Source: Accumulibacter sp. (lineage in GTDB: Bacteria; Pseudomonadota; Gammaproteobacteria; Burkholderiales; Rhodocyclaceae). From it: a DNA stretch of 64,000 nucleotides. Numbering within the stretch: the stretch's first letter is position 1; every line of letters starts with the position of its first letter. Made by a program: the position numbers and the translations under genes. The DNA lies in assembly GCA_031266435.1 (NCBI GenBank), contig JAISAZ010000103.1, positions 16,119 through 80,118 of the forward strand. The letters are read 5' to 3'. Below the pieces are notes generated by a model that saw only the letters and a program-made list of their open reading frames with translations, had not been told where the DNA came from and ran no database searches. This document shows positions 3,897 to 19,800 of the stretch, one piece after another.

Positions 3897-3921
3897 CGTT
3901 CTCTCCTTTCAAACGTGTGTT

Positions 3922-4377: not shown

Positions 4378-4405
4378 TTCAAACTCTCCTTTGTCTTGGG
4401 CAAAG

Positions 4406-4451
4406 CCCCGGCGCGGCGAGTGTTGCGAATGTTACAAGTACCGCGCCGGGG
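4406..4451 (-). terminator. GC-rich stem-loop between fliC and flaG (possible attenuating terminator or mRNA-stabilising stem)
   Basis: CCCCGGCGCGG (4406-4416) pairs perfectly with CCGCGCCGGGG (4441-4451), 24-nt loop, only a short CTTT tail on the minus strand. Confidence 0.4.
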
Positions 4452-4490
4452 AGAATTCGCCTCAAGGATACTGGAATCCTCCGTCCGTCA

Positions 4491-5288
4491 TTACCTCAAG
4501 AGCGAAAGCACGTTTTGCGGGAGCGTATTCGCCTGCGCGACCATCGCGACGCCCGATTGTTGCAGGATTTGCGCGCGCGACAAATTCGCGGTTTCGGCTG
4601 CAAAGTCGGCGTCCATGATGCGGCTCTTGGCGGCAGTCTGATTCTCGCGCGCGGCTTCGAGGTATTGCCCCGTATAGGCCAGACGGCTCTGGACTGCGCC
4701 GATGTTGGCGCGGCTTTTCGAGACATCAGCGAGCATCGACTCAATCACCGACAGCGCGGACCCAGCGGCACCAGCATCGATTACCGAAAGGTCGCTTACT
4801 GAAACGCTGTCAAATGTCGCCGTAATGCTTTGCTCATAATTTGCGCCAACCTGGAAGGTATATCCGGCCGATAGATAAACGTTCTGATTATTGAGTTCGG
4901 CAACGCTTTGCATCCGATTGGCTTCCGCAATCAGTTGCGTGAATTCTACGTTGATCATCGAACGTTCAGTGTCAGAAATCGTTCCGTTCAATGCCTGCGT
5001 CGCGAGGTCGCGCATCCGCAAGAGTTGGTCGGTCACGACTTCGAGCGCCTTGTCGGCGGTTTGCGCGAAGGAAATCCCGTCGTTCACGTTGCGCATCGCG
5101 ACGGTCAGCCCACGAACCTGCGCTTCCATTTTCGTCGCGACGGCGAGACCCGCCGCGTCGTCCATCGCGGAATTGACACGAAGACCCGACGAGAGGCGTT
5201 CGAGCGCGGTTGACATCGCGCCTTGGCTCTTGTTCAGGTAACGTTGCGAATTGAGCGACATTATATTTGTGTTGATGATTTGGGGCAT
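4491..5288 (-). CDS. fliC: Flagellin, short form (265 aa)
   Basis: MPQIINTNIMSLNSQRYL...LSSGLRVNSAMDDAAGLA N-terminus; SRIMDADFAAETANLSRAQILQQSG..M.AQAN..PQNVLSLLR C-terminus. Confidence 0.97.
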   Translation of the reverse strand: MPQIINTNIMSLNSQRYLNKSQGAMSTALERLSSGLRVNSAMDDAAGLAVATKMEAQVRGLTVAMRNVNDGISFAQTADKALEVVTDQLLRMRDLATQALNGTISDTERSMINVEFTQLIAEANRMQSVAELNNQNVYLSAGYTFQVGANYEQSITATFDSVSVSDLSVIDAGAAGSALSVIESMLADVSKSRANIGAVQSRLAYTGQYLEAARENQTAAKSRIMDADFAAETANLSRAQILQQSGVAMVAQANTLPQNVLSLLR

Positions 5289-5376
5289 TACTGACTCCTT
5301 GAGGTTGATTGAACCAACGCGCCGACGCCGAGCGTGGCGCTTTCATTATTCGCGGATTTTCGATCCGTTGGAGATG

Positions 5377-5403
5377 CTAACGGTAGAATACCAGAAAACT
5401 TTA
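5377..5403 (-). promoter_or_regulatory. Sigma-28 (FliA) promoter of fliC
   Basis: Minus strand TAAAGTTT-N11-ACCGTTAG versus consensus TAAAGTTT-N11-GCCGATAA, about 90 bp upstream of the fliC ATG. Confidence 0.8.
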
Positions 5404-5420
5404 GGGGTTTTTGATATCCC

Positions 5421-5830
5421 GTACAGGTTGGTGGTGAGCGCATCATCAGGGATCAGATGTCAGGTATCAGGGATCAGATGAAAACCGATTTCAACCGCGA
5501 AAGGCGCGAAAGTCTTTGTAGGGGCACGGCACGCCGTGCCCTATCGGCGGTATAGGTTGGGGTGAGCGAAGCGATGCCCAACGTTCCGTGTTCGCATGAA
5601 TGATGGAGAGGGCAGGGGAATTCTCCATGTAGGGGCGAACCTATGTGTTCGCCCAATATCCGGGCAGACACGCAGGTCTGCCCCTACGTGGCAATCGACG
5701 ACGCGCGGACGGTTGACGCCGCTTTTGCGGGAATGATGCCGATCCTGAAATGGCTTGCGCTTCGCGCAAGCGAGATGTTGGGCATCGCTCCGCTCACCCC
5801 AACCTATACCAACCCATACCCACCCCAACG
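5421..5830. repeat. Mosaic repeat cluster C1
   Basis: Heptamer array (ATCAGGG/ATCAGAT); nonamer arm AACCGCGAAAGGCGCGAAAG 5493-5512; REP-B GTAGGGGCACGGCACGCCGTGCCC 5518-5541; REP-A 5551-5582 (+) and 5777-5808 (-); inverted REP-C pair 5629-5654 / 5662-5687; hairpin GCTTGCGCTTCGCGCAAGC. Confidence 0.9.
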
Positions 5831-5908
5831 TATGCGACCATCAAGCGGGAATGCCACAATGAGAATTGTGAGACAATCGAAAAAATTTTTTTCCGACAAG
5901 GAATCAAA

Positions 5909-8557
5909 ATGAATGCGTGCAAGCCGGAACCATCCGCCGAGCAGCCCGACGCGATGAAGCGCGCTACGGCGTTTTTTGAGTCGGGTGAATTCGCCGAAGC
6001 CGAGCGCCTCGCGCGAGAAATCTGCGCCGCGAACCCGACTGACGAAAACGCCCTGCGCTTTCTCGCGCAGGCCGTCTACGAGCAGGGGCGTATTGAGGAA
6101 GCGGTCGGCTTGATCGGGGACGTGTTGAAACTCAACCCGATGCGCTCGGCGTACCACAACGACCTCGGCGCGATGCTCGCGGCCTTGAAGCGCTGGCCCG
6201 AGGCCGAAGCCGCGTACCGGATGGCGAAGGTTCTCGACCCGCACAATCCCGACGCGCCTTTCAATTTGGCGATTGCGCTTTCGAACCAGAACAAAAACGA
6301 CGCGGCCTTGCGCGAGCTCGAGTCGCTCGAAAATGTACAGCCTGATTTCGCCGATGCCTACGCCTTGCGCGGGAAAATTCTGTCGAGTGAGGGGCGTTAC
6401 GACGAAGCCGCCGACGTGTTTTCAAAAGCGATCGCACACGGACTTGATAATGCTGACGTTTATGCTGACCTCGGAGTCGCGCTTTTTCGCGCTGGACGAC
6501 GCGAAGAAGCGCTCGAGACCTTGTTCGAATCGGGAAAAATCGACCCCGAAAGCGCGATGGCGAATTGCTGTATGGGTGAGTTGATGCACGAAAAAGGAGA
6601 TATCGCAAAAGCGCGGTGCTACTTTGAAAAGGCGCTCGAAATCGACCCAAGCCTTGCTGTGGTGCGCAATAATCTCGGTGTGATTCTCCAGAAGGAAGGC
6701 GATTTTTTGCGCGCCGAGGCCGAGTTTTCGCGCGCGATCGAGTTCGACCCTGAAATGGCTGCTGCCTACGTCAACCTCGGCAACTGCCAGAATCGCCGGG
6801 GCAGGCGCGAAGACGCGCGCGCGTCTTTTCAACGCGCAATCGAGATTGATCCATACGACCCTGGAACGTGGAATAACCTTGCGTTGCTATTTTACGGCGA
6901 ACGGCGTTTCGACAAAGCCGAGGCGACGTTTCAACAAGCGCTATCGGTGAGGCCCGATTCGCCGCTGGTAAAATTCAACTACGGTGTGATGCGGCTTTCG
7001 CTCGGCGACTTCGAGGCCGGGTGGGAGGAATACGAGCAACGCCACGCGCTCAAAGCGAGAGAAAACAAAGGCGTTCACCCCTCGCACTCGAAATTCGATT
7101 GCCCTGAATGGGACGGTGAGCCACTTGATGGCAAGGGTCTTTTCGTCGACACCGAGCAGGGTTTGGGCGACAGCATCCAGTTCGTCCGCTACTTCGGCAC
7201 GTTGCGCGCGCGCTACCCGTCCGCGCGCCTTTTTTTCAGGTGTTATTTTCACTTGGCGCGCCTTTTTTTGCTCGTCGCGGTGAAATACGGCGTCACGATC
7301 ATTTGGAATACAGACCAATACGAGGAGAATAAAGGGGATTGGGATTTTTTTGTTCCCCTGATGTCGATTCCCAGGCATCTCGCGGGGACAAGGTTGACGA
7401 TCCCTGCCGACGTGCCGTATTTAGGCCTGCCCGACGCCTTCATCTCACAATGGGGTGCACGTCTCTCCACGCTCGTCGGAAAAAAGGTAGGCGTCGTCTG
7501 GTCGGGGAGCGAAGGCTACGTGGCAGCGGGTCGCCGCAATATGACGATATCGCAGTTTGCGCCGCTCTTCGACATCCCCGGAATATCGTGGGTCTCGTTG
7601 CAAAAACTGCCGAAAGGCGACGCGCGCGGAGAGATCGACACCGAAGGTCTTTCGACGAAGATTTTCGACCCGATGCCTGAGGTGAAAGACTTCGCCGATA
7701 CGGCGGCGATCGTCGCGAACCTCGACCTCGTGATCAGCGTCGATACGGCGGTGCTCCACCTCGCTGGCGCGATGGGCGTCGCGGTCTGGCTCATGAACCG
7801 CTTCGATACCGACTGGCGCTGGGAGTACGACTCTTCGGACAGCCTCTGGTACCCGACGATGCGAATCTTCCGCCAGAAGACTTCCGGTGAATGGGCGCCG
7901 GTCGTCACCGAGGTAGCCGACGCTTTGAAAAAATGGGTCGACGCCGACGCGAGCGAGGCGACGTGGGTGCTCATCGAGCCGCCGAGAGCGGATGCGGCGT
8001 TCAACGTCGCGCTCGCGCTCTCGAAAGAAGGGAAGGCCGACGAAGCCCTGCGCGTCCTCGATATCCTGGAAAAAAAATACCCAGAATTCGCGTGGCAATT
8101 CGCACTGCGCGGGAAGATCTATCGTGCGGAAAAACGCGCCGAGGATGCCGTCGAAGCGCTGTCGTGCGCGGTCGCGCTCGGGATCGAAGCGCCGAGCGTC
8201 GTCACGCAGCTCGGTCTGGCGCTTGCGGACGCCGGCCTGGACGACGAGGCGTTCAAAGTGCTCGCCGAATCGGGCAAGGCCGATGCCGAAGACCCTGCCG
8301 TCAATCATTGCCTCGGCGTTCTCCTGAGGAGGCGCGGTAAAACCGACGAGGCGCGCCGCTATTTTGAAATGGCCATCGTCGCGGACCCGACCTTTACGGA
8401 AGCCCTCGAAGCTCTGGGCGAACTCCTGTGCGCGGCGGGCGATGTGGCGGCGAGTGATGCCGCATTCGCGCGCAGGGACGAAGTTAGCGCGAGCCGCGCG
8501 CGTTATCGCGCGGCGCTCGAAGACTACGCGGCGGCGATTTTCGGCCTCGTGCGCTGA
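5909..8557 (+). CDS. TPR-repeat glycosyltransferase (GT9/heptosyltransferase-like catalytic domain)
   Basis: Many TPRs, then EQGLGDSIQF, VGVVWSG, WVSLQK, DFADTAAIVANLDLVISVDTAVLHLAGAMG, DWRW, WYPTMRIFRQ. Start moved to ATG 5909 because the upstream in-frame part is repeat-derived. Confidence 0.85.
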   Translation: MNACKPEPSAEQPDAMKRATAFFESGEFAEAERLAREICAANPTDENALRFLAQAVYEQGRIEEAVGLIGDVLKLNPMRSAYHNDLGAMLAALKRWPEAEAAYRMAKVLDPHNPDAPFNLAIALSNQNKNDAALRELESLENVQPDFADAYALRGKILSSEGRYDEAADVFSKAIAHGLDNADVYADLGVALFRAGRREEALETLFESGKIDPESAMANCCMGELMHEKGDIAKARCYFEKALEIDPSLAVVRNNLGVILQKEGDFLRAEAEFSRAIEFDPEMAAAYVNLGNCQNRRGRREDARASFQRAIEIDPYDPGTWNNLALLFYGERRFDKAEATFQQALSVRPDSPLVKFNYGVMRLSLGDFEAGWEEYEQRHALKARENKGVHPSHSKFDCPEWDGEPLDGKGLFVDTEQGLGDSIQFVRYFGTLRARYPSARLFFRCYFHLARLFLLVAVKYGVTIIWNTDQYEENKGDWDFFVPLMSIPRHLAGTRLTIPADVPYLGLPDAFISQWGARLSTLVGKKVGVVWSGSEGYVAAGRRNMTISQFAPLFDIPGISWVSLQKLPKGDARGEIDTEGLSTKIFDPMPEVKDFADTAAIVANLDLVISVDTAVLHLAGAMGVAVWLMNRFDTDWRWEYDSSDSLWYPTMRIFRQKTSGEWAPVVTEVADALKKWVDADASEATWVLIEPPRADAAFNVALALSKEGKADEALRVLDILEKKYPEFAWQFALRGKIYRAEKRAEDAVEALSCAVALGIEAPSVVTQLGLALADAGLDDEAFKVLAESGKADAEDPAVNHCLGVLLRRRGKTDEARRYFEMAIVADPTFTEALEALGELLCAAGDVAASDAAFARRDEVSASRARYRAALEDYAAAIFGLVR

Positions 8558-10989
8558 TGGGCATCGACGGTGTCGACCCTTTGCGCCGCGATAAAATCTC
8601 GCGTGCGCAGGCGCTGTTCGGCGAAGGCCTCGCGCGTTCGCGCGCAGGGCGTTTTGCCGAGGCGCGGGAATACTACGAACGCGGCTTGAAACTCTTCCCC
8701 GGTCAGCCCGACGCGGTCTTCCTGCTTGGGGAAACGCATTTCGAACTCGGGAACGCCGCCGAAGGCGAGCGCCTCGTCCGGCGCGCGATCGCCGCAAACC
8801 CGCGCGCCGACAACTACCGCCGCGCGTTTGCGACGCGGCTGTTCAAGGCCGGACGGCTCGACGAAGCGCGGGCGTTTTTTGAAGATGCCGCCCGCCTGAA
8901 CCCCTCCGAGCCGGCGAATCTCTCCGGGCTGGCAAGCGTTCTCGAAGGTGTTGGTCGCTTTGCCGACGCGATTGCCGTATGGCTTCGACTGCTCGAACGC
9001 GCGCCGGCCTCATTGGAAGCGCTCGCCCGCCTTTCGCGCCTGTTCGTCGCGGAGAATCGCGTCCCCGAAGCTTTTGCCATGATTGAGCGCTGGATGAATG
9101 TCGCATCGAACGCTTCGGATGCTTCAGCCTACGCCTTGCGCGCCGAGCTTTACGAGAGCGTTGGGAACGCCACCGCCGCGCTGGCCGATTACGCCGACGC
9201 CGCCGCGCGCGCGCCGGATGACGCGAGCACCCACGCGAAGTACGCGCTGGCGCTCGCAAAGGCCGGAGACGACGACGCGGCGCTCGCGCATTTCGACGCA
9301 TCGGTTCGCCTCGAACCCCGTAACGCGCTTTTGCACTTCAACCGGGGCGTCGCGTACGCGCGCGCTGGCGTCCGCGACCAAGCCGTGTCGGCTTACGAGA
9401 CGGCGCTCGGACTTCTCACACTCTCGACGGATTTGCCACTGGCGTCGAATACCATGCTCAATTTGGCGAATCTCTATTCCGACCTCGATCGTTGTGACGA
9501 AGCGCGGGCGCTTTATACGCGAATCCTCGCGGCTGAACCCAAAAACGCTGCGGCGCTTTTCAACCTCGGTATGCTGGATCTCGCCGCTGGGCACAAGAAG
9601 GACGCCGTCAAGACGCTCGAACGCGCGCTCGCCGCCGACCCCGACGGCGAATCGGCTGGTTTGGTCGCGGCGCATCTCCTCTTCCAGAAAATGCATCTCT
9701 GCGAATGGGACGGACTGGAGGATTTGACCCGCCGCGTGATTCACGCGGTCGAGAACGATACGGCCGACGTTCCGCCTTTCATCACGCTGTCGATCCCCGG
9801 AACGACGCCGTGTCTCCAGCGGCGATGCGCCGCGAACCACAGTGCCCGACTGAAAAAGCCTGGAATGAGCGTGTTTAGTGAAACGAGGCGCTGTGCCGCG
9901 CCGCGCGAACGCCTGCGCGTCGGCTATCTTTCGTCCTACTTCAAAGCACACGCGATGCCGTGGCTCACAGTCGAAACGCTCGAAGCGCACGACCGCGCGC
10001 GCTTTGAAATCTTCGCGCTTTCTTATGGTGTCGATGACGCTAGTCCGATGCGCACGCGCGTTGTGAACGCCGTCGAGCACTTCGTCGAACTCGCGGGCTT
10101 GCCCGACCGCGACGCCGTCGCGCGCATCGCCGCGCTTGAACTCGACGCGATCGTCGACTGGAATGGTTATACCGAAGGGAATTGCAGCCGCTGGTTGCAA
10201 TATCGCCTCGCGCCGCGCCAGATCAGTTGGATCGGTTATCCCGGAACGCTCGACGCGCCGTGGGTCGAGTTTTTGATCGCCGACGTGCACGTCGCGCCGC
10301 CGGAAAACGACTCGTTGTTCAGCGAGCGCGTCGTTCGCCTGCCGGGTTGCTATTTGCCGAACTGCCGCGCGCGCGAATGCGCGCCCGTACCGACGCGCGC
10401 GGAAGAGGGCTTGCCCGAAGGCGCGCTCGTTCTCTGCTCGTTCAACCAGACGGTCAAGATTACGCCGGAGATGTTTGCGCTTTGGATCGGCCTCCTCGGT
10501 GAATTCCCCGAAACGGTTCTTTGGCTCTGGGCGTCGAACCGCTGGGCAGAGGCTTCGCTTCGCCGAGTCGCCGAAGCCGCGGGACTCGTGCCCTCACGCG
10601 TCGTTTTTGCCGAAAGCCGACCGCAGGCCGAACACCTCGCGCGCTTGCCGCTCGCCGACCTCGCGCTCGACACCTTCCCGTGCAACGGGCATACGACAAG
10701 CTCCGACGCGCTCTGGGCCGGCGTCCCCGTCGTGACGCTCGAAGGCGAGGCTTTCGCCTCGCGCGTCGCGGGTAGCCTGCTACACGCCGCCGGATTGCCC
10801 GAACTCGTCGCGCCCGACACGGCGGCGTATCGCGCGATCGTCCGGCGCTTTTGCCGCGATCAAGGCTTCAGGGACGGCGTCTCGAACAAGGCGCGCGCGC
10901 TGCGCGAGACTTCCGACCTCTTCGATAGCGCGAAGTTCGCGCGCAAGCTCGAAGCGTGCTTCGAGGAGATTTGCTTGGGGGAGGGGTGA
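8557..10989 (+). CDS. TPR O-linked GlcNAc transferase-like protein (GT41/SPINDLY family)
   Basis: TPRs, then RLRVGYLSS.F..H and DLALDTFPCNGHTTSSDALWAGVPVVTLEGEAFASRVAGSLL; TGATG overlap with the upstream gene. Confidence 0.9.
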   Translation: MGIDGVDPLRRDKISRAQALFGEGLARSRAGRFAEAREYYERGLKLFPGQPDAVFLLGETHFELGNAAEGERLVRRAIAANPRADNYRRAFATRLFKAGRLDEARAFFEDAARLNPSEPANLSGLASVLEGVGRFADAIAVWLRLLERAPASLEALARLSRLFVAENRVPEAFAMIERWMNVASNASDASAYALRAELYESVGNATAALADYADAAARAPDDASTHAKYALALAKAGDDDAALAHFDASVRLEPRNALLHFNRGVAYARAGVRDQAVSAYETALGLLTLSTDLPLASNTMLNLANLYSDLDRCDEARALYTRILAAEPKNAAALFNLGMLDLAAGHKKDAVKTLERALAADPDGESAGLVAAHLLFQKMHLCEWDGLEDLTRRVIHAVENDTADVPPFITLSIPGTTPCLQRRCAANHSARLKKPGMSVFSETRRCAAPRERLRVGYLSSYFKAHAMPWLTVETLEAHDRARFEIFALSYGVDDASPMRTRVVNAVEHFVELAGLPDRDAVARIAALELDAIVDWNGYTEGNCSRWLQYRLAPRQISWIGYPGTLDAPWVEFLIADVHVAPPENDSLFSERVVRLPGCYLPNCRARECAPVPTRAEEGLPEGALVLCSFNQTVKITPEMFALWIGLLGEFPETVLWLWASNRWAEASLRRVAEAAGLVPSRVVFAESRPQAEHLARLPLADLALDTFPCNGHTTSSDALWAGVPVVTLEGEAFASRVAGSLLHAAGLPELVAPDTAAYRAIVRRFCRDQGFRDGVSNKARALRETSDLFDSAKFARKLEACFEEICLGEG

Positions 10990-11535
10990 TTCAGGAGACA
11001 GGAGACAGAGGACAGAAGACAGAGGACAGAAGACAGATCAGTTAGCGGCGGCTTCGCCACCGGAGAAGAGCTTTTTCAACCCGCCTCGGAAACGTTGGGC
11101 ATCGCTTCGCTCACCCCAACCTATGGCATCTCCGCTCCGTTCTCGGCGGTATAGGTTGGGCTGCGGCGAAGCAAAGCCCAACGTTCCGTATGCGCATATC
11201 ATGTATCAGATGTCAGGAATCTGGAATCAGATGAAAACCGATCGGTGTATCAAAGATTCTTCTCCGGCCGAAGGCCGCAAGAATTCTCTGTCTCCCGACC
11301 TCTGTCTCCTGTCTCCTGAACCAACCCGCCTCGCGATCGTTGGGCTTCGCTCCGTTCTCGGCGGTATAGGTTGGTGGTGAGCGAAGCGAACCCCAACGAT
11401 TCCGTATGCGTATATCAGGGATCAGGAATCAGAGGACAGGAATCAGATCAGTCAGCGGCGGCTTCGCCACCGGTAAGCGCTTTTTCACGCCGCCCCGGAA
11501 ATGTTGGGCATCGCTGCGCTCTGCCCAACCTATGC
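10990..11535. repeat. Mosaic repeat cluster C2
   Basis: Heptamer arrays (GACAGAG/GACAGAA) start right after the stop codon; module F CAGATCAGTYAGCGGCGGCTTCGCCACCGG at 11034 and 11444; REP-A at 11094(-), 11150(+), 11365(+), 11503(-); GGCCGAAGGCC at 11266; inverted heptamers 11286-11319. Confidence 0.9.
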
Positions 11536-11618
11536 GAGTTATGGGGGCGGACTGGCGGGTTATAGGGGCTTGAAGAGAAGAAATATCTGTGTTAAAAACC
11601 GAAGGAAAGGAGAGCGAA

Positions 11619-11822
11619 ATGGCTGACGAAAGTACGACCGTTGAAAACGAAAGACTCATTCACATCCGACGAATCGACGCGGAAATATCGAAGATATTTA
11701 CCGAAATCGAAGAAATGCGCGCCGAAACGATGAAAATCCAAACAGAATCAAAATGGCATCCTTTTGTCGTAGTTGCCGGAATCTTCGGCGCCGCCATCGC
11801 CATCGTTAAACTTTTTGTCTGA
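11619..11822 (+). CDS. Small hypothetical protein (67 aa), coiled coil plus C-terminal membrane anchor
   Basis: GGAG RBS then ATG 11619; heptad-like RIDAEISKIFTEIEEMRAETMKIQTE followed by hydrophobic WHPFVVVAGIFGAAIAIVKLFV. Confidence 0.7.
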   Translation: MADESTTVENERLIHIRRIDAEISKIFTEIEEMRAETMKIQTESKWHPFVVVAGIFGAAIAIVKLFV

Positions 11823-12005
11823 TTCCTTTTCCAGTTCGCCACGGTCGACTTCGTCTTGCCGTAAAGATGTGGGGGACGTGGCGAACCCCAAACCGTACGC
11901 TTTTTCATGCCGCCCCGCGATTGTTGGGGTTCGCTCCGTTCTTGGCGGTATAGGTTGGGCTGCGGCGAAGCAAAGCCCAACGTTCCGCATACGCATGAAT
12001 GATGG
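11822..12005. repeat. Mosaic repeat cluster C2b (truncated inverted MITE arm + REP-A)
   Basis: 11822-11863 ATTCCTTTTCCAGTTCGCCACGGTCGACTTCGTCTTGCCGTA matches one arm of the 1611/54127 element in opposite orientation; half REP-A at 11923, full REP-A at 11949-11981. Confidence 0.85.
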
Positions 12006-12056
12006 TGGGTAGGGGGGCGGGGTACACGATAATCACTCGGTGTGGGAGGGTAGAAA

Positions 12057-12911
12057 ATGGATGACGAGCATCTTTTTGGAGGGGTTTGGACGCGTACGAA
12101 ACTTGATGCGCTGGAAAAATATCTCGCCGCTTTCAATACGGCGCTGAGCAAACAGAATTTCAAACGGATTTACATTGATGCGTTTGCGGGTAGCGGATGG
12201 TGTGACATCACGGAAGGCAGCCAAAAAACGCGGATCGACGGCTCGGCAAGGCGCGCGTTGAACGTTTCACCCCCTTTCAATACGCATTATCTTATCGAGT
12301 TGGCGCAAAAGAAGCTGGCGGCGTTGAGGGCGATGAAGGCCGAATACCCGGGAAAATCGATTGAAATCATTCACGGCGACGCCAATATTGAATTGAAGAG
12401 GCTGTGTAAAAAATACTCTTGGCACGACGAACGCGCCGTTCTATTTCTCGACCCCTATGGAATGAAAGTAGAGTGGGAGACGCTGAAAGCGGTTGCCGGA
12501 ACGCATGCGATCGACGTCTGGTATCTATTCCCTTATTCGGCGTATTACCGTCAAGCCGCGAAAGACGCGAATGCAATGGATTCTGGAAAACAGGAAGCCA
12601 TTACCCGTTTGCTGGGAACAGAGGAGTGGCGGCAGGTATTTTACGTCCCGAAACGGCAACCCGACCTCTTTGATGCGAATAGCGGAGACGAGCGGGAAGC
12701 CGGTCATTCCGAGATGCTGGATTTCGTATCGGGCCGCTTGCGCGAAATATTTCCCGCAGTACTGGAACCAAAAATTCTGTATCAGGGAGGCGATTCCAGG
12801 AACCCGCACGGCGCGCCGCTCTTTGCGCTTTATTTCGCGGCGTCGAATCCAAAACCCGCAGCGTATAAACTTGCGAAAAAGATCGCCAAGGATGTTCTCG
12901 ACGCGCTATGA
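12057..12911 (+). CDS. tcmP: Three-Cys-motif partner protein TcmP (SAM-dependent methyltransferase-like fold)
   Basis: WTRTKLDALEKYL, YIDAFAGSG, GDAN, AVLFLDPYGMKVEWETL..IDVWYLFP, LYFAASN motifs typical of the family; next to DUF5131. Confidence 0.88.
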   Translation: MDDEHLFGGVWTRTKLDALEKYLAAFNTALSKQNFKRIYIDAFAGSGWCDITEGSQKTRIDGSARRALNVSPPFNTHYLIELAQKKLAALRAMKAEYPGKSIEIIHGDANIELKRLCKKYSWHDERAVLFLDPYGMKVEWETLKAVAGTHAIDVWYLFPYSAYYRQAAKDANAMDSGKQEAITRLLGTEEWRQVFYVPKRQPDLFDANSGDEREAGHSEMLDFVSGRLREIFPAVLEPKILYQGGDSRNPHGAPLFALYFAASNPKPAAYKLAKKIAKDVLDAL

Positions 12912-13655
12912 CACGACCGGCGATGTTTGCGGATAACTGCTCCAGATGCGTCCCTGAAATGTGCGTCCGTTGGCTTTTTTATGCCGTTTGACTCCATCCG
13001 CACCCCATCCGCCCCACTGTTTGAAGAAAAAAGCGGTATTCACCGCATCCGCTTGGCGTTTTATATTTTCGACCCATTCCGACCTCATCGGGCGGGCTTT
13101 GGGTCCCGATTCACCGCCGACGATCACCCAATGAATCCCATCGAGGTTTATTTCTCCCAGATTTTCCAGCAAGGGCTCAATGGACAAAAAACGAATGCGT
13201 GCACTCACTTTGCGTAGATAATCGATGCGTGGCACCCCATACTTCCGGTCTTCCACGGAAACACCCAGCCAGACGTTGTTTGGACAGATACGATCCTTGA
13301 AGTATACGGGCAGACGTTCGGCGCGTTTGGTTAATATTTGATACGTGTGCTGCGGCGTCTGGCGGATCACATCGAATACCCGATCAAGGAATTCATCGGG
13401 AATCCCCTTGTGGAAGAGATCGCTCATCGAATTGACGAAATAAATGGTCGGTTTTCTTCGTTGCAAAGGCTGGGTAAGCCGCTCGGGCAGAATAGTCAGG
13501 TTGAAACCGTCACGATAACCCGGTACTCCCATGGCGCGGAGCCGATGGGCCATTACCTCGGCGTAGCAATGCGTACAAGCGGGAGAAATTTTCGTACACC
13601 CCGTTGTCGGGTTCCACGTTTGCTCCGTCCACTCGATTTGTGATTGTGTCGCCAT
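12906..13655 (-). CDS. DUF5131 (phage Gp37Gp68) family protein, radical-SAM-like three-Cys motif
   Basis: SQIEWTEQTWNPTTGCTKISPACTHCYAE, FVNSMSDLFH, QILTKRAER, VWLGVSVE, FLSIEPLL, WVIVGGESGPKARPM, FFFKQWGG. Confidence 0.92.
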   Translation of the reverse strand: MATQSQIEWTEQTWNPTTGCTKISPACTHCYAEVMAHRLRAMGVPGYRDGFNLTILPERLTQPLQRRKPTIYFVNSMSDLFHKGIPDEFLDRVFDVIRQTPQHTYQILTKRAERLPVYFKDRICPNNVWLGVSVEDRKYGVPRIDYLRKVSARIRFLSIEPLLENLGEINLDGIHWVIVGGESGPKARPMRSEWVENIKRQADAVNTAFFFKQWGGWGADGVKRHKKANGRTFQGRIWSSYPQTSPVVS

Positions 13656-13853
13656 GGTTTTTCCTCTTTTCGCTCATCCTGCACATGGCCGCATGTGAGG
13701 GCATGGATTGTCAAAGAATCGCAGAAAGGGATAGCAAGATTGCCGACACGCGGCGATGGCGCTTATCCGAATAGACGAGATTTTACCCGATGAGGAGTCG
13801 GTTTCGTCATCCGGCGCTTTTGGCGCGATCAAGGCTTCAGGGATGTTGGGGGT

Positions 13854-13906
13854 TTTGGTCAATAAATTGACCAAACCCCTATATTTTGGTTAAAATTTTG
13901 ACCAAA
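13854..13906 (+). promoter_or_regulatory. Twin 22-bp palindromic operators overlapping a sigma-70-type promoter of the XRE gene
   Basis: O1 TTTGGTCAAT-AA-ATTGACCAAA (13854-13875, perfect 10-bp arms); O2 TTTGGTTAAA-AT-TTTGACCAAA (13885-13906, one mismatch); -35 TTGACC 13867-13872, -10 TAAAAT 13891-13896, ATG at 13906. Confidence 0.75.
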
Positions 13907-14565
13907 TGAACACTTCGGGAATCAGCGCCGTTCTGGAACGTCAGTTGCTGTTGCAACTGGGCGACCGGCTCAAGCGTCTGCGGAAAGCGCAGGGGCTTGG
14001 TACGGTCGAGATGGCCGCGAGCGCCGGGATTTCCCGCAACACCTTGCGGGCCGTCGAAACCGGCGACCCTTCTCCCTCGATCGGCGCCTATTTGCGCGTA
14101 ATGTCGCTCCTCGGCGTCAGCGGCGAGTTGGCCTTGTTGGCGGGAGATACCCTGCAGCCGCCGCCGGATTCCGAAGCGGCGCGATCCCGACGCGCTATGC
14201 CGCTCGTCAAGGTGCGCGTTTCGGCGGACGAGGCACGACACGCGCTTCAGGACACGCGGAGTCTGGCGCTTCACGAGGAAGCCGTGCGGCTGGTCAAGAC
14301 CGATCCGGCTCTGGTTTTACAGGCACAGGACACCACCAAGCGCTGGCTTGCCACCGGTGACCCGCGTTCCGCAAGCCTGTGGCGCGAATGGCAGAATATC
14401 TTGGGCGTGGGGTCTTGGCGCAAGGCGCTCGCTCGTACGCGGCGCGCTCAACAGTTGCGGCAGGCCTCGCCGCTCGTTACTGTCCTTCCAGAAGAAGTAC
14501 GTCGTCGCATCCTGAATCAGGTGAATGAACTCAAAAAAGGGGTCGACATCACGGGGTTTGCATAG
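13906..14565 (+). CDS. XRE-family helix-turn-helix protein with an additional C-terminal domain
   Basis: LGDRLKRLRKAQGL..VEMAASAGISRNTLRAVETGDPSPSIGAYLRVMSLLG HTH; C-terminal SLALH...W...LRQASPL domain. Confidence 0.85.
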   Translation: MNTSGISAVLERQLLLQLGDRLKRLRKAQGLGTVEMAASAGISRNTLRAVETGDPSPSIGAYLRVMSLLGVSGELALLAGDTLQPPPDSEAARSRRAMPLVKVRVSADEARHALQDTRSLALHEEAVRLVKTDPALVLQAQDTTKRWLATGDPRSASLWREWQNILGVGSWRKALARTRRAQQLRQASPLVTVLPEEVRRRILNQVNELKKGVDITGFA

Positions 14566-14595
14566 CTTGTGAGGCGTAGCGAACCCCAAGCTACG
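14561..14595. repeat. REP-A variant hairpin overlapping the XRE stop codon
   Basis: TAGCTTG (14563-14569) / CAAGCTA (14587-14593) stem with loop TGAGGCGTAGCGAACCC resembling REP-A; reads GTAGCTTGGGG... on the minus strand. Confidence 0.6.
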
Positions 14596-14605
14596 CGGAC
14601 CCCGT

Positions 14606-15334
14606 CTATTCTGCATCCTCCGTCCGGGGCTTTTTGTAGCGAACCTTCTCCGACGCAAAGCGCAGGAGTTGCTCCAGCAGAATATCGGGCGGTTTCGTTC
14701 CGTCGAGACGCAGGTGCGGTTCCAACGGCACCTCGAATGTGGATGATATCCCGGTAAAATCTGGAATCTCGCCGCGCATCGCTTTTGCGTAAAGATTCTT
14801 GGGGTCGCGCTGAATACAGACTTCCAACGGTGTATCGACGAAAATTTCGTAAAGTTCGTCCTCCCGAAAAAGCTCCCGGAGTGCCAGCCTGTCGCGCCGT
14901 AAGGGTGAAATGAACGACGCGAGGACGATCAAGCCGGCGTCGGCCATCAGATGCGCCGCTTCGGACGCGCGGCGTATGTTTTCTGAGCGATCTTCTACTG
15001 AAAAGCCCAGGTCGCGATTCAGCCCGTGCCGCAGGTTGTCGCCGTCGAGAAGATAGACGTGCTTCCCGCGTTCGTACAATGCCTTGCCGAGCAGATTGGC
15101 CATCGTAGACTTTCCTGAAGCGGACAAGCCGACAAACCAAAATACGCAAGGATTCTGGTTTTTTTGGGCGGCGCACGTCGCTTGGTTCAAGTCAAACGTA
15201 TGCCATTGAATGAGTGGTCGCACGTCAGCTCCCGCGTCGGCGTCAATCGTCAACGCGCAGCAGTCTTGCGATTTGCGCGTCCCTTTGGGCAATCTGCGTG
15301 TACAAGGCGTTGTGTGATTTTTTGATACATACAA
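14606..15334 (-). CDS. cysC: Adenylyl-sulfate (APS) kinase; true start may be downstream
   Basis: WFVGLSASGKST P-loop, LDGDNLRHGLNRDLGFS.EDRSENIRR, SFISP, DPKNLYAKA..GEI..FTGI. Confidence 0.92.
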   Translation of the reverse strand: MYVSKNHTTPCTRRLPKGTRKSQDCCALTIDADAGADVRPLIQWHTFDLNQATCAAQKNQNPCVFWFVGLSASGKSTMANLLGKALYERGKHVYLLDGDNLRHGLNRDLGFSVEDRSENIRRASEAAHLMADAGLIVLASFISPLRRDRLALRELFREDELYEIFVDTPLEVCIQRDPKNLYAKAMRGEIPDFTGISSTFEVPLEPHLRLDGTKPPDILLEQLLRFASEKVRYKKPRTEDAE

Positions 15335-15383
15335 TTAAAGTGGTGGCCTCATTCAGAGAACAACAATATCTTGGGAGTGCTTT

Positions 15384-16457
15384 ATGAAAAACGAATCCAT
15401 TTTCCTCCACGCCCTGCCACGTACGTCGAGCACTTACGTTTTTGAGAAACTGCGCCGCCCCGCCTACGACACGTATTGCTACAACGAACCCCATCATGAG
15501 ATCCACGCAACTCTCACTCGAGAACAGGCAAAAAAAGGATCGTCGGCGACTTGGCCGGCCGGGCATCACCCCCCTGATTTCGCGCCTTACTACTTTGAAT
15601 ACCTTCCGCTCCTTCAGGAAAGCGGTGGAACTTTGGCCTATAAACGCGAGTACGGAGTAGCGAATTTCTTTCCGTCGGGGCCGCTATCCGAAGGCGAAAT
15701 CGCTTATTTGCGTCTGCTCGAAGAAAACGCCCGCAAACGAAACCTGCGCCCCGTCTATGGTTTTTGCCATTCGTTCGGTCGTGTCGGACATATTCGAAAA
15801 GCATTTACAGGCGTACACGTCGTACAGTACAGGAACCCGCATCAGGTACTGGCTTCTCTCATGAAGCTTTGTGGTGAAGGGTTTTTTTGTTCCGCCGTCA
15901 AGGAAGCAAAACCCGGATCGCTCCTGGATCGGATCGGCTTTGCGGGACCTGACATTTTGCATGCGGAACTTGACCCCGTTCCAGAGTCGCTTGCCCTCGT
16001 AACGTCGCCCGCGTTGTATGCGCTTTTCTTCGAATTTTACGTGATCGGTGTCATCGCTGGCGCGTTCTACGCCGACTTGCTTTTGAGCGTCGATTTGCTC
16101 GCCCACGACACGGACTACCGCGCGGCGTTTACACGCGATTTTGAAAAGCTGACGGGTATCGCCGTGAATTTCGCCGACGCCAAATTACCTGACAAACACG
16201 AAGGCGCAATTTACAACCCAACTTTCTTTGAAGACGCTATCGAAAAATACGCGGGTTCGGAAGAGCGCCTCAAAGTTTTCAAGAACGCTCTGGAAGCTGT
16301 CAGCGGAACGCCCGTATGCAAATCGATTCAGGACATTCAAGAAATGATTGAGATCTGGAAAACGATCTTCCCTTCTTCAAAATGCGCGGACGACCTAATT
16401 TTATGTATCATAATATTCAAGTTTTCATTCGGTGAAATCGGCGTTCATTTGCCTTGA
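15384..16457 (+). CDS. Sulfotransferase-like protein
   Basis: N-terminal IFLHALPRTSSTYVFEKLR resembles the 5'-phosphosulfate-binding loop, then YNEP and a later RNP motif; divergent from cysC. Confidence 0.6.
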   Translation: MKNESIFLHALPRTSSTYVFEKLRRPAYDTYCYNEPHHEIHATLTREQAKKGSSATWPAGHHPPDFAPYYFEYLPLLQESGGTLAYKREYGVANFFPSGPLSEGEIAYLRLLEENARKRNLRPVYGFCHSFGRVGHIRKAFTGVHVVQYRNPHQVLASLMKLCGEGFFCSAVKEAKPGSLLDRIGFAGPDILHAELDPVPESLALVTSPALYALFFEFYVIGVIAGAFYADLLLSVDLLAHDTDYRAAFTRDFEKLTGIAVNFADAKLPDKHEGAIYNPTFFEDAIEKYAGSEERLKVFKNALEAVSGTPVCKSIQDIQEMIEIWKTIFPSSKCADDLILCIIIFKFSFGEIGVHLP

Positions 16458-16463
16458 AAGCGT

Positions 16464-16820
16464 TCAGCCTGCGCTATAAAACAGGCTACACCCGACGGCC
16501 TCACGCGACAGGCGCTCGATCTGCGCGAGCATTTTTTCTCCTTGCGTTTCCAGGATCAGCGCTCGCGCTTCTTCGCCAAGCCCCACGGCGCGTGCGGCGA
16601 GGTGAAAGTCGAAGAGCGCGGACAAATCGCCGTCCTTGACGGCGAATATACGGAACGCCGCTACGAGATTCTCTTCTCCATCTACCAATGGAGCCGTCGC
16701 GCGCAGGGTTGTCCCCTTCGCGCGGCAGTGCTCTTCGGCGATTTGCAGGAGTTGTTCCGCCGAACAGAAACGCACGGCGGCGCCGTTTTCGATCAGGTAG
16801 TAGAGAGTGCGTCCATCCAT
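16464..16820 (-). CDS. Hypothetical protein (~118 aa)
   Basis: ATG 16820 overlaps the last 28 nt of the large glycosyltransferase; fills the gap to the convergent sulfotransferase; no recognised motif. Confidence 0.4.
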   Translation of the reverse strand: MDGRTLYYLIENGAAVRFCSAEQLLQIAEEHCRAKGTTLRATAPLVDGEENLVAAFRIFAVKDGDLSALFDFHLAARAVGLGEEARALILETQGEKMLAQIERLSREAVGCSLFYSAG

Positions 16821-19800
16821 GCGTCGAGTCTGTTTTCGAGCAAATAGTGTTTTTTGACCCATTCGCGCAAGGCGTCGCCCTCGCGCGCGAGCGCGTCGGG
16901 GTCGGCGATCCTCTCAAGGATGGCGGCGATCCATTTGTCGGGGTCGTTCGGCAGGCGCGTGACCGGCGGGTTGTCGGTTCGGAAAGGGAAGATGTCGGAG
17001 CAGATCACCGGCCAGCCGAGAATGCCGAATTCGAGCAGGTGCAGATTGCTTTTGGCTTCGTTGAAGGGGTGGATTTCGAGCGGAGCGACCGCGAGGTCGA
17101 GGTTCAGCGAAGCGAGTTTTTCTGGGTAGGTAGGGAAGTCGTGGTGAAAATCGTGGAATTCGGCGACGTAGGGGCGAATTTCTTCAGGGATCATGCCGAA
17201 GAATATCCAGTCGGCGTCCTTGCACGTCGCCTTGACGACCTCCGTCAGGAATCGCAAATCGCCCGCGTGCTGCTGCGCACCCGTCCAGCCGATGCGCGGC
17301 TTGCGGCCTTGTCGGCGTTTCGATTGCAAATGCCCCCAAACCCGCCATTCCAAAGCGTTCGGAACGACGCGGATGTCGTCGATCATGGTACGGAAGGCTT
17401 CCGCGAGCGGTTCGGTACTGACGAGCAGACGGTCGCACGCACCAAGACCAAGATGTACTCTCTTTGTGAATTCGTCTCCAGATGCCATCGAATGCATGGG
17501 GTGATCTTCGGGGAGGCAGGTGAGCAGATCGTCGAGCGAATAGATGCGAAAAACGCCCGGATTGGATTCCTTATAGCTGAGGAGGGCCGCGTAACTGACC
17601 TCGTTGACAGGCGTGTGCATGACGAGCACGTCGGGCGCGAGGCGGTCGAGTTCGACGGGGGTTGGCGCACGCCGTGCTTGTCCCTCGTGCAACTGGCATA
17701 TGTCGGCGTAGTGCAACCGCCCCTGAAGGTTCAGCGCGCGCAGGGGCGCGACGCCGCGGTATTCCGCCGTTGCCGGAGGCGATACCGGGAGAAACAAAAC
17801 ACGCGGTCGGTCGTGAAAATCGGTATTCCACGGAACGACGAGTTCGTTTTCCAGAGTCAGCGCCATTTCCCATAAGCTGAGGTGGCGGTTCCACGCTGGG
17901 TCGCTGGAGAGACGATGTTTCCACCGCTTGATGAAATTTTCTGTTTCTTGAGCCATTTCAGCAAACGTGGCTTGTTCCATATCTTGGCTGCTTAGATGCT
18001 TGAATGAAGCGGAACCTTGATGGAGCAGCGTGGCGAAAGGCGTCCAGACGACGCGGTAGCCGAGTTCTCCGACCTTGAGACAGAGGTCGACGTCTTGGTG
18101 CTGGAGTTTGAGCAGGGGGTCAAGGCCGGCAACTTGGTGGAAAATCGACGCACGGACGAGCAGGCACGCGCCGGTGACTGCCGAGTATTCCTGGTCGACG
18201 AAAGTTCGATTCATATAGCTCGGCGCATCGTGAGGATGGAGCACGAAAATGTGGTTTGCTGTATTGAGGGGCGCCAAGCCGAGAACGACGCCAGCGTGTT
18301 GGATCTTCAGCGTTTCTGGAAAAAGGAGGCGCGCGCCGACAATGCCGACGTCGGGTCGCTGCGCGTGGCTCATCATCGCGTCGAGCCAGTTGGCGTCGAT
18401 GCATTCGGTGTCGTTGTTGAGGAGTAACAGGTATTCTCCCTCCGCCTGACGCGCCGCGCGGTTGTTCATCGCGGAGTAGTCGAAGTCGCCGGGCGTGGGG
18501 ACGATTTTTACACGGCCCGGAAATCGTGCGCGAAGCCTGTCGTAGTAGGCGTGGACCTTCGGGTCGTCACTGTCATTATCGGCGATCACGAGTTCCCAAT
18601 TCGGGTAGGTGGTCTTTTTGAACAGGCTTTCGACGCAGGGAGCGATGAGGTCGAGGCGGTTGCGCGTCGGGACGATGATCGAGACCTTCGGTTTTTCTTC
18701 GTGCAGATAGACGACGCTACGCGACCGAATCCTTGCGTCAGCGGTCAGTCCCGAAAGAATCGAGACGGGCGTTTTCCTGCGCTTGAAGTGTCGGCGCAAG
18801 GCTTCGGTCGCGCCCTCGTCGTCCGCGCCCATGCTTGCCGAGTCGCAAAGGTGAACGAGGATTTCCGGGATATGGCCGACGGCGGCTTCGCCGGACGCGT
18901 CGATCGCGCGCAAGAGGAGGTCGTAGGGCGCCGCACCGGGGATGGTGGAAAAGCCGCCAGCGCTGGCCAATGTATATTTTTCGATAAAAAAGCCGCCGAT
19001 GTAGTCGGTTGAACGCAGAAACTCCAGGTTGAGGTCGGGTTTGAAGCGCGGCGAGTGGAATTTCCCGTTGCGCGCAACGCAGTCGTCGTCGGCGTAGATC
19101 AGCTTCCACTGCGGGCGGATCGCGATGTAATCGCCGAGCGTCAGAAACGCGTCTTCGGAGAAACGCGTTCCGCACTCGAAAAAGCCGAACCAGTGCGTGG
19201 GCGATTCAGCGATGTACGCGTTAACGTGCTCGGCGAGTTCCTCCGGCGGGCAGCAGACCCAGCGAACGGGGCTGTCGCTTTGCGTGAATTCGGCTTCAGG
19301 CGAAGGGGTTTGCGCGAAGATGCCGAGGCGCCAGCCTGTGTAATACTGCCGCGCGAGGCTGTCGATGCTGTCGGCGAGCAGGGCTTCCTCGCCGGGATTC
19401 AGAATCAGCAGGATTTCGAACAGCGGTGGCGTTTTCCAGAGGTTTTCCGCGCGTTCGCGGCGGAGCGTCTCGAAGAGCGGGTCTTCGAGGCGGCGTTCGC
19501 GCCAGCGCCAGTAGTCGAGCAGGAAAGCCGCCTGCACCTCCTCGCCTCGGTTTTCGAGCGTCGCGCGCCCGGTAAGCGCGGTTTCGATCCATTCGCGTAC
19601 GCCGATGGCTTCGGGAAAGCGCTCGATATAGCGCTCGAGCAGAGGGACAGCTTCGGCGAAACGATCCGATTCTGTCAAGAGTTTTGCCAGCTTCAGGTTC
19701 TCGCGGACCGGCTCGCCGGCTCTTTCTTCGGCACGTTGATACCAAGAGATCGCGAGCGCCTTGTTGCCCATTTTTTCAGCGTAATCACCGAGGCGGTCGT

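Follow-up and report, generated by a model that had tools for sequence, protein, structure and literature searches.

Two intact genes, tcmP and a gene of the DUF5131 family, converge and overlap at their 3′ ends in the window (the whole 64,000-nucleotide stretch of DNA that was analysed). The genes, their junction and the ribosome-binding sites read from the sequence are the following:

12057-12911, plus strand: tcmP, intact ORF of 284 aa encoding TcmP (three-Cys-motif partner protein)
12906-13655, minus strand: DUF5131 gene (phage Gp37/Gp68 family), intact ORF of 249 aa
12906-12911: 6-bp tail-to-tail overlap of both stop codons, CTATGA
12045-12051, plus strand: Shine-Dalgarno-like GGGAGGG, 6 nt before the tcmP ATG
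13662-13668, minus strand: Shine-Dalgarno-like AAGAGGA, about 7 nt before the DUF5131 ATG

At the junction, whose letters are gcgCTATGAcac, the tcmP stop codon is TGA (12909-12911) and that of DUF5131 is TAG (complement of 12906-12908), which gives the 6-bp overlap. The coordinates and motifs of the intact convergent pair described in the initial annotation were confirmed. In the public gene call for the contig, DUF5131 starts from Met35 (215 aa) and its Cys motif is consequently lost; since alignments with homologues begin at residue 1, the 249-aa ORF is the correct one.

Both family assignments were verified by HMM searches, with scores far above the respective cut-offs. TcmP matched TIGR04474 with 191.6 bits (cut-off 53; E 2.4e-56), the match spanning 11-277 of 284 aa, and DUF5131 matched PF07505 with 358.8 bits (gathering threshold 28.9; E 1.8e-107) over profile positions 1-243 of 243. 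Among the PADLOC models, TcmP matched PDC-M41A (PDLC04635) with an E value of 2.1e-83, and DUF5131 matched PDC-M41B (PDLC04639) with 9.7e-110 and also PDC-M30B with about 1e-110; a further match of DUF5131 was to phrog_2045. Adjacent genes with full-length matches to both component HMMs place the pair in the candidate defence system PDC-M41, to which PDC-M30 is related; PDC systems are predictions from genomic association. The locus is almost certainly an intact copy of this mobile two-gene module.

In TcmP, motif I reads YIDAFAGSGWC (residues 39-49; D41-x-F-A-G-x-G47) and a variant motif IV reads FLDPYGM (residues 130-136; F130-L-D-P-Y-G135). Across 116 diverse homologues the motif residues were 98-100% conserved, with D41, F43, G45 and G47 at 99-100%. 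When an AF2 model of TcmP (pLDDT 74) was compared with the PDB by Foldseek, the best matches were RlmJ/DUF519 structures (E 2.6e-6 to 3e-5). A diverse TcmP profile also matched RlmJ in an hmmsearch against the PDB (E 2.8e-4), and its hhalign comparison with E. coli RlmJ gave a probability of 86%. The signal was obtained only with the diverse profile: a narrow one, built from 65-80% identical sequences, had no match in the PDB and an insignificant one to RlmJ. A fold search of BFVD with TcmP returned generic methyltransferases only. TcmP shares with RlmJ, the 23S rRNA A2030 N6-methyltransferase, the class I fold and an inserted helical subdomain; its YIDAFAGxG aligns with YLDTHAGAG of RlmJ, and motif IV and the next WY-P strand align as well. 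However, the homology is very distant, and TcmP, unlike RlmJ, is carried by mobile elements, in every case together with a radical SAM partner. The catalytic (D/N/S)PP(Y/F) motif IV of RlmJ-type enzymes is absent from TcmP, whose family-wide motif IV is F-L-D-P-[YF]-G, with DP[YF]G for DPPY, shorter by one residue. Because of this difference TcmP was not classed as a member of the RlmJ type, and our claim extends only to a similar way of working. Model and profiles together indicate that TcmP adopts a class I SAM-methyltransferase fold and is a distant relative of the 23S rRNA m6A methyltransferase RlmJ; as the catalytic DPPY is altered, it may be a SAM-binding protein that transfers no methyl group. 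A GMT-like winged-helix (wHTH) domain is present on longer TcmP forms. A 552-aa TcmP "fusion" (P0241) turned out to be a tandem duplication of the same sequence and was discarded as a TcmP-DUF5131 fusion.

The Cys motif of DUF5131, CTKISPACTHC (residues 20-30), has its cysteines at C20, C27 and C30, all 99% conserved among 96 homologues. The spacing is CX6CX2C and not the canonical radical SAM CX3CX2C; variant spacings of the cluster-motif cysteines are known within the radical SAM superfamily. An AF2 model (pLDDT 72.5) found its best PDB matches by Foldseek in lipoyl synthase (LipA) and spore photoproduct lyase (SPL), with TMq 0.43-0.50 and E about 1e-3, and the matches to LipA, SPL, AprD4 and viperin, which bear on the partial (beta/alpha)6 TIM-barrel fold of the superfamily, were weak (E about 1e-3 to 5e-2, TM 0.4-0.5). 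Neither of two DUF5131 profiles gave a radical SAM sequence match in the PDB at E ≤ 10, the narrow one yielding noise only, and the likeness to SPL lies at the level of the fold and not of sequence homology. Alignment by hhalign with an Rv2578c/PA0069-like radical SAM protein covered the full length with a probability of 77%, and a match to TIGR04471 fell below the cut-off. At RadicalSAM.org, DUF5131 belongs to Megacluster-5-2, beside SPL, and forms a subgroup there and in SFLD (PMC9477430). The resemblance to radical-SAM and SPL enzymes proposed in the initial annotation agrees with this placement and with the models. DUF5131 thus resembles the SPL/SplB-like proteins (Rv2578c, PA0069 and the "radical SAM mobile pair" proteins A and B) as a network neighbour, in its model and by full-length alignment, but differs from them in its Cys spacing (CX6CX2C vs CX3CX2C) and its size (249 aa vs about 340). 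From sequence and model, we regard DUF5131 as a compact, radical-SAM-superfamily-like protein near SplB/SPL. It is about 50% identical between a Gordonia phage and this bacterium.

As a single-sequence TcmP scan of genome contigs gave one locus, loci were collected from metagenome and viral scans instead. DUF5131 was adjacent in 114 of the 136 TcmP-anchored loci and a related radical SAM gene in another 15, the rest being contigs that end at the gene. The second partner type, Rv2578c/PA0069-like and from the SplB-like radical SAM families, replaces DUF5131 in another clade. Apart from the contigs ending at the gene, TcmP was never seen without a radical SAM partner in these 136 loci. The pairing of TcmP and DUF5131 is therefore non-random, in line with the regular co-occurrence that had been noted earlier. 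The dependence runs one way. At 50% identity the TcmP family falls into about 3,150 clusters, and the DUF5131 family is far larger; DUF5131 was present in 181 phage records and 439 plasmid records, as against 5 and 11 for TcmP, and 36 of 80 viral DUF5131 loci in IMG/VR had no TcmP. The neighbours of these TcmP-less viral genes included no dominant alternative partner. In Gordonia phage Bakery a C5 DNA methyltransferase is translationally coupled to DUF5131 in place of TcmP.

The convergent arrangement is a trait of one clade. Among sampled loci of the close clade, 33 of 39 had the 6-bp junction (CTATAG in 18, TTATAG in 8 and CTATAA in 6; CTATGA in the window), and co-directional, tightly coupled operons accounted for 38 of the 114 paired TcmP-anchored loci and 18 of the 37 paired DUF5131-anchored loci. 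In the closest relatives (25) a small HTH gene, HTH110, precedes DUF5131, and the order of a TcmP gene (M) facing DUF5131 (R) and its HTH gene (M → ← R ← HTH) is conserved. Copies that have their HTH gene include those of P. aeruginosa and Methylomonas. The window copy has lost HTH110. A neighbouring gene, HTH219 (13906-14565, with two palindromes), was at first assumed to be the controller of the module and was then dropped: it is unrelated to HTH110, a search of 135 other loci gave no homologue of it, and a sister strain that lacks the pair has it as well. A promoter and terminator scan of both genes, restricted to sigma-70-type consensus sites, found nothing above shuffled expectation, and none of the RNA-seq runs searched contained the locus.

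Comparison with a related strain (about 93-95% identity; run X2) delimited an insertion, whose features are:

12000-13853: strain-variable segment containing the pair only; right boundary at 13853/13854, left boundary approximate
13805-13843, plus strand: second copy of a 37-40-nt direct repeat; first copy at 10836-10874, within the 3′ end of the GT41 gene

The related strain has sequence for the GT41 gene and for all positions from 13854 onward; no contigs of run X2 span 12113-12916 or 13319-13853. Immediately upstream of 13854 the related strain has unrelated sequence, which does not occur in the window. High-copy repeats conceal the left boundary, hence its approximate position. The GC content of the variable segment is 52%, against 60-65% upstream. 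Here the pair is an insertion, gained by horizontal transfer and variable between strains, in a flagellin-glycosylation island. The two copies of the direct repeat, the only ones in the window, are 95% identical (0.01 expected by chance) and possibly mark, where the variable segment ends on the right, the scar of an insertion or recombination. As att sites of an integrative element they are doubtful: no integrase was found and the segment is not cleanly bracketed, the sister strain retaining the tail of the GT41 gene.

The wider family is associated with mobile and defence genes. Among close relatives the pair occupies the end of a prophage and lies immediately downstream of defence operons that vary (Type I R-M, GmrSD, Hma), and further neighbours of related pairs include Hna, Abi genes and BREX. 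Pairs also occur on plasmids, and members of the family are present in cyanophages as well as beside phage genes for recombination and replication; many solitary DUF5131 genes are located among the replication genes of temperate actinophages. Phages Che9c and Bakery are examples with a solitary DUF5131 gene. Co-regulation of tcmP with hna has been described in S. meliloti (PMC12445080). The host of the window copy is a termite-gut bacterium, and other carriers come from dark or anoxic habitats too. Repressor and integrase regions of temperate actinophages reportedly carry prophage defence or moron cassettes, as Dedrick et al. are said to have described in 2017. The pair resembles these cassettes in Gordonia phage ThankyouJordi, where an immunity repressor is followed by a long-form TcmP convergent with DUF5131 and adjoining the integrase, and in Pseudomonas and metagenomic prophages, where it is located beyond the lysis genes; it differs in that the window pair is outside any prophage and no exclusion phenotype has been reported for TcmP/DUF5131. 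The window copy also has no other defence genes beside it, unlike its relatives in defence islands. The searchable literature contained no phage-resistance test of PDC-M41 or PDC-M30, the one validation study found having covered other PDCs, and a literature search returned no biochemical study or experiment on members of either family, which agrees with the earlier remark that the biochemical output is not established. Taken together, the PDC-M41 match and the position of relatives by defence genes and prophage ends fit the earlier description of a candidate module for anti-phage defence or base modification; prophage genes for counter-defence or DNA protection would be just as much expected to lie with defence genes.

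We tentatively favour, at somewhat less than an even chance, a reading in which the pair modifies nucleic acid (probably DNA) in a SAM-dependent manner, as a module that serves in phage-host conflict. In the mechanism as we infer it, TcmP and DUF5131 would act on one shared nucleic acid, most likely DNA. DUF5131 would be the core, carrying out an autonomous radical reaction on a base, and TcmP, its obligate accessory, would draw on SAM to add a mark or complete it. The base so modified would shield the DNA of the carrier or mark it as self. The wHTH domain on long TcmP forms and the C5 DNA methylase coupled to DUF5131 in phage Bakery were counted for a link of the module to DNA. Points against this reading are that TcmP and DUF5131 have no recognisable sequence-specificity domain, that the catalytic motif of TcmP is altered, that DUF5131 has non-canonical Cys spacing and is only weakly similar to radical SAM structures (TM at most 0.5), and that the scan gave no promoter-like site for either gene in the window.

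It is unlikely that the pair works as an R-M-like or toxin/antidote system, in which DUF5131 would damage unmarked DNA, TcmP would protect it, and the convergent layout together with the HTH gene would delay the effector. C-protein-controlled Type II R-M systems such as Esp1396I have convergent M and C-R units, and the close clade is similarly arranged: a methyltransferase-like gene faces a second gene led by an HTH, their 3′ ends overlap, and the order is conserved in 25 relatives. The pairing of DUF5131 with different methyltransferase types (TcmP and a C5 methylase), as restriction enzymes can do, and the location of pairs in defence islands also speak for it. However, the window pair does not contain the combination of nuclease, methylase and controller HTH of a Type II system with C protein: there is no nuclease domain in the pair, and HTH110 is missing. 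DUF5131 is highly conserved and without a variable specificity domain. Between about a third and a half of the pairs form co-directional operons. Moreover, the distribution of orphans is reversed, real R-M systems having common orphan methylases and rare orphan nucleases; that TcmP is always partnered, whereas about half of viral DUF5131 genes are without it, argues against DUF5131 being a toxin neutralised by TcmP. The initial interpretation consequently stood as to the families, their co-occurrence and the candidate module, but not as to the convergent layout providing independent control of a toxic/protective pair: the layout belongs to one clade, the supposed toxin is often solitary and the supposed protector never, and the HTH gene beside the window pair is not part of the module.

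The same asymmetry would be explained by a reversed, DarTG-like arrangement, which we consider quite unlikely. In it TcmP would be the effector, placing a harmful mark on nucleic acid, DUF5131 would repair or erase this mark as a radical-SAM enzyme, much as SPL acts in repair, and the solitary DUF5131 genes of phages would serve counter-defence. In an equally unlikely and more far-reaching version, the two would be a reversible base-marking pair with a new type of chemistry: TcmP would write on DNA a mark derived from SAM, and the SPL-like enzyme would erase or convert it, as DarG does for DarT, phages using their solitary DUF5131 genes as erasers. The nearest characterised relative in the neighbourhood of DUF5131 is a DNA repair lyase, and tcmP is co-transcribed with upstream defence genes where DUF5131 stands in its own HTH-led unit. 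On the other hand, this arrangement is purely distribution-based, many solitary DUF5131 genes are in temperate actinophages without known TcmP-bearing hosts, and in aerobes such as P. aeruginosa an antidote that is sensitive to oxygen would be fragile.

An RNA-modifying pair, with TcmP acting on rRNA or tRNA like RlmJ and RsmD and DUF5131 like RlmN, Cfr and MiaB, is likewise improbable. By structure and by profile, TcmP finds its best matches in rRNA methyltransferases, and the fact that its closest structural relatives act on RNA and not on DNA counts against the DNA reading. Against RNA stand the wHTH domain of some TcmP forms, one phage in which DUF5131 has a C5 DNA methylase as its partner, the superfamily neighbourhood of DUF5131, which is that of the DNA lyase SPL, and the location of the genes among phage DNA-metabolism and R-M genes.

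Compatible with any mechanism proposed for the family, the pair in this window could be a silent remnant that is not expressed, having arrived without its HTH gene and its promoter context. The loss of the HTH110 of 25 relatives, the lack of a promoter-like site for either gene in the scan, the lack of an RNA-seq run containing the locus and a sister strain without the pair all point this way. The chance of this being so nevertheless appears small, as both ORFs are full length, every invariant residue is kept and the ribosome-binding sites are good, and the promoter scan was limited to sigma-70-type consensus sites. Finally, a DNA repair function for a photoproduct-like or alkylation lesion, with the pair hitch-hiking in prophages and playing no part in conflict, is very unlikely: the SPL-like fold and the occurrence in cyanophages and among phage recombination/replication genes would suit it, but carriers live in a termite gut and in further habitats that are dark or anoxic, the pair is tightly built into defence operons, and the obligate methyltransferase-like partner would be left unexplained.

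As a widespread mobile module that is already listed as a defence candidate, the pair is ordinary in this window, and the copy adds little as an instance. The comparative picture, in contrast, narrows the hypotheses for the family, through an RlmJ-like TcmP, two interchangeable SplB-like partners, the one-way dependence of TcmP on the radical SAM enzyme and the fixed 3′ position after defence operons. If the improbable write/erase arrangement were true, DUF5131 would be the first radical-SAM enzyme so used in phage-host conflict. If the favoured reading is true and the radical-SAM and methyltransferase-like proteins act together on DNA, their modification of nucleic acid would be of a kind new to phage-host conflict, in a large family that is widespread in phages, plasmids and defence islands.

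The two ORFs lay where the initial annotation had placed them, and the motifs that it quoted were all found, DAFAGSG and LDPYG in TcmP (three-Cys-motif partner protein) and CTKISPACTHC in the DUF5131 protein:

12057-12911, plus strand, tcmP, ORF of 284 aa
12906-13655, minus strand, DUF5131 gene, ORF of 249 aa

At the junction, CTATGA, the tcmP stop (TGA) interlocks with that of the DUF5131 gene (TAG, complement of CTA), so that the genes overlap by 6 bp, as had been read before. Good ribosome-binding sites precede both genes; a scan of the window for sigma-70-type promoters detected none that would serve tcmP or DUF5131. The public gene call for the contig starts DUF5131 at Met35, with loss of the Cys motif; the 249-aa ORF is correct because homologue alignments begin at residue 1.

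The suggested HMM check placed both proteins above the cut-offs, TcmP with 191.6 bits against TIGR04474 (cut-off 53) and the DUF5131 protein with 358.8 bits against PF07505 (cut-off 28.9). A profile search gave no Pfam domain in TcmP. The DUF5131 protein also matched phrog_2045 and, under the cut-off, TIGR04471 ('radical SAM mobile pair protein A'). Both components of the PADLOC candidate defence system PDC-M41 were matched by the pair, and PDC-M30B by the DUF5131 protein as well. In the literature searched, no functional work on DUF5131, TcmP, PF07505, COG4422 or PDC-M41 turned up.

DUF5131 constitutes Megacluster-5-2 in RadicalSAM.org, a neighbour of spore photoproduct lyase (PMC9477430). 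Its model (pLDDT 72.5) showed a partial beta/alpha barrel, with weak best matches (E ~1e-3, TM 0.43-0.50) to lipoyl synthase, spore photoproduct lyase, AprD4 and viperin; PDB profile searches returned no solved structure matching by sequence. Megacluster placement and these weak fold matches agree with the radical-SAM/spore-photoproduct-lyase likeness proposed earlier. The AF2 model of TcmP (pLDDT 74) adopted a class I methyltransferase fold, best matched in the PDB, at E 2.6e-6 to 3e-5, by RlmJ and its DUF519 relative; EgtD and RsmD came next. A narrow TcmP sequence profile detected nothing; a diverse one (27 TcmPs) matched RlmJ in the PDB (E 2.8e-4). When TcmP was compared with E. coli RlmJ by hhalign (probability 86%), YIDAFAGxG aligned to YLDTHAGAG and FLDP-[YF]G to IDPPYE. 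Residues D41, F43, G45, G47, F130, L131, D132 and P133 were conserved at 98-100% in 116 homologues. Fold matches, alignments and motif conservation together indicate that TcmP is a distant RlmJ-like protein of methyltransferase fold whose SAM loop is intact and whose catalytic loop falls one residue short of DPPY.

We collected 136 TcmP-anchored loci from genomes, metagenomes, IMG/VR, phages and plasmids. DUF5131 was convergent with TcmP at 76, followed it at 35 and preceded it at 3, which bears out the regular co-occurrence claimed for the two families; at 22, tblastn found no DUF5131. Fifteen of these 22 carried a substitute Cys-motif protein of 254 aa (254-347 aa) from the Rv2578c/PA0069/'mobile pair B' radical SAM families, and hhalign gave a full-length alignment of this substitute to DUF5131 (probability 77%, E 2e-5); the remainder were contigs ending at the gene. 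At every intact locus, then, TcmP stood beside a SplB-like radical SAM protein, DUF5131 or its substitute. The converse is false: among 80 DUF5131-anchored IMG/VR loci, TcmP was adjacent in 37 (19 convergent, 18 co-directional) and absent in 36 with good flanks, and the neighbours of these 36 included no dominant alternative partner. DUF5131, said earlier to occur in phages, was found in 181 phage records versus 5 for TcmP, and in 439 plasmid records versus 11, counts in which tblastn under-counts divergent TcmPs.

All loci at least 60% identical to the window TcmP were convergent, with the 6-bp stop-codon overlap at 33 of 39 sampled junctions (CTATAG, TTATAG or CTATAA; CTATGA in the window). 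The overlap is therefore an inherited trait of the module rather than a chance event at this locus, and it is likewise not general to the pair. The conserved block of this clade is a prophage end, in which tcmP faces, in order, DUF5131, an HTH gene (~110 aa), lysozyme, holin-like and tail genes on the opposite strand. The position directly before tcmP, in the same orientation and in some cases with overlap, is taken by variable defence operons:

upstream of tcmP, Type I R-M with or without GmrSD
upstream of tcmP, Hma (DUF1156 methylase, DUF499 ATPase, helicase)
upstream of tcmP, methylase with RhuM and Mrr

Among relatives, otherwise unrelated defence operons regularly ended in tcmP (loci L007, L011, L013, L014, L018, L024, L026, L035, L039, L040 and L004). 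These comprised Type I R-M with or without GmrSD, Hma and Hna, in some with a 4-bp overlap between tcmP and the gene before it; the 3' position of tcmP is fixed. In S. meliloti hna is followed by tcmP, and the two are co-regulated (PMC12445080). Abi genes adjoin the pair on a Leisingera plasmid and BREX in Nostoc; in Gordonia phage ThankyouJordi it lies between immunity repressor and integrase.

Several loci departed from these arrangements. On Nostoc plasmid pC052_C (L003, 6886-7092) an annotated 68-aa ORF, convergent and overlapping with tcmP, occupies the usual DUF5131 place, with a divergent radical SAM gene of 324 aa upstream, beside BREX; the partner may have been replaced or have decayed. 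In S. meliloti pSymA (L004, 6906-8150) and L044, tcmP and DUF5131 are separated by a gene of 415 aa on the DUF5131 strand; its product bears a GMT-like wHTH domain at the C-terminus and is probably a further, long TcmP-like partner. In protein P0262 (1226 aa) a TcmP domain follows a large N-terminal portion that has an FGE-sulfatase domain, through either a real fusion or a gene-call artefact. Gene order in a separate viral clade (L114-L118, L121, L123-L127, L135) is HTH (76 aa), long TcmP (379 aa), TcmP, 254-aa radical SAM, N6/N4 DNA methylase (810 aa) and ResIII helicase (960 aa); here two TcmP paralogues and a different, Rv2578c/PA0069-like radical SAM (motif CX3CX3C) adjoin a Type III-like R-M.

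The contig derives from a termite-gut metagenome, and the surroundings of the pair are as follows:

2571-21259, flagellin-glycosylation-type island, pair inside
10836-10874 and 13805-13843, direct repeat of 37-40 nt, 95% identical, only two copies
10990-12000 (also 5566, 14567-14598, 35108), REP/MITE-like dispersed repeat cluster, internal inverted arms, e.g. CGGAAACGTTGGGC...GCCCAACGTTCCG
11589-11822, small ORF of 77 aa between repeat copies, coiled-coil-like N-terminus, hydrophobic C-terminal helix
13854-13875, palindrome TTTGGTCAATAAATTGACCAAA, 22 bp, preceding the HTH_31 gene
13885-13906, palindrome TTTGGTTAAAATTTTGACCAAA, 22 bp, running into the HTH_31 ATG
13906-14565, HTH_31 gene (219 aa) beside the pair

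The island encodes FliD, flagellin, two large TPR proteins (one with a GT41 glycosyltransferase domain), APS kinase, a 357-aa protein without domain match and a 1488-aa methyltransferase and glycosyltransferase fusion. GC content is 52% in the pair versus 60-65% upstream. In a sister strain (run X2, ~93-95% identity) contigs covered the GT41 gene and the whole region from 13854 on but not the pair, and unrelated sequence stood just before 13854, which identifies the pair as a strain-variable insertion. Of the direct repeat, one copy (10836-10874) is internal to the GT41 gene at its 3' end; the other (13805-13843), in frame IRRFWRDQGFRDVGGFGQ*, resembles a stray 3' end of a paralogue and stops 10 nt short of where the variable segment ends on the right. 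Contig word depth at the REP/MITE-like cluster, which is accompanied by a GGACAGA-type low-complexity stretch, reached ~4,600 versus 11-20 in the flanks, so the metagenome contains an extremely large number of these repeats, which broke the assemblies at 10990-12000. The 77-aa ORF had no Pfam/NCBIfam match and no homologue in the related loci. The HTH_31 gene was rejected as a module part, being host DNA conserved in the sister strain without the pair, and the ~110-aa HTH gene of relatives is absent at the window locus. The two palindromes before the HTH_31 gene, spaced 31 bp, overlap a promoter-like TTGACC-18-TAAAAT (10/12 matches), which suggests an autoregulated repressor gene with almost no leader.

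We propose that TcmP and DUF5131 would share one nucleic acid as substrate, DNA being the most likely, with DUF5131 as autonomous core enzyme and TcmP as obligate SAM-using accessory, and that the product would be a base modification serving in phage-host conflict. Two observations favour DNA: the C-terminal part of long TcmP forms (371-438 aa) is a GMT-like winged-helix domain, and DUF5131 is translationally coupled with a C5 DNA methylase in Gordonia phage Bakery; RNA modification and plain DNA repair are possible alternatives. A speculative reading with the roles reversed, TcmP writing and DUF5131 erasing the mark, agrees with the distribution of the two families. The toxin/protector reading of the initial annotation is weakened, because orphans are distributed in reverse to those of R-M systems and operon layouts are frequent; its observation was confirmed and its interpretation supported in part. 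The window locus, in itself an ordinary instance, adds a member to the already known candidate system PDC-M41.
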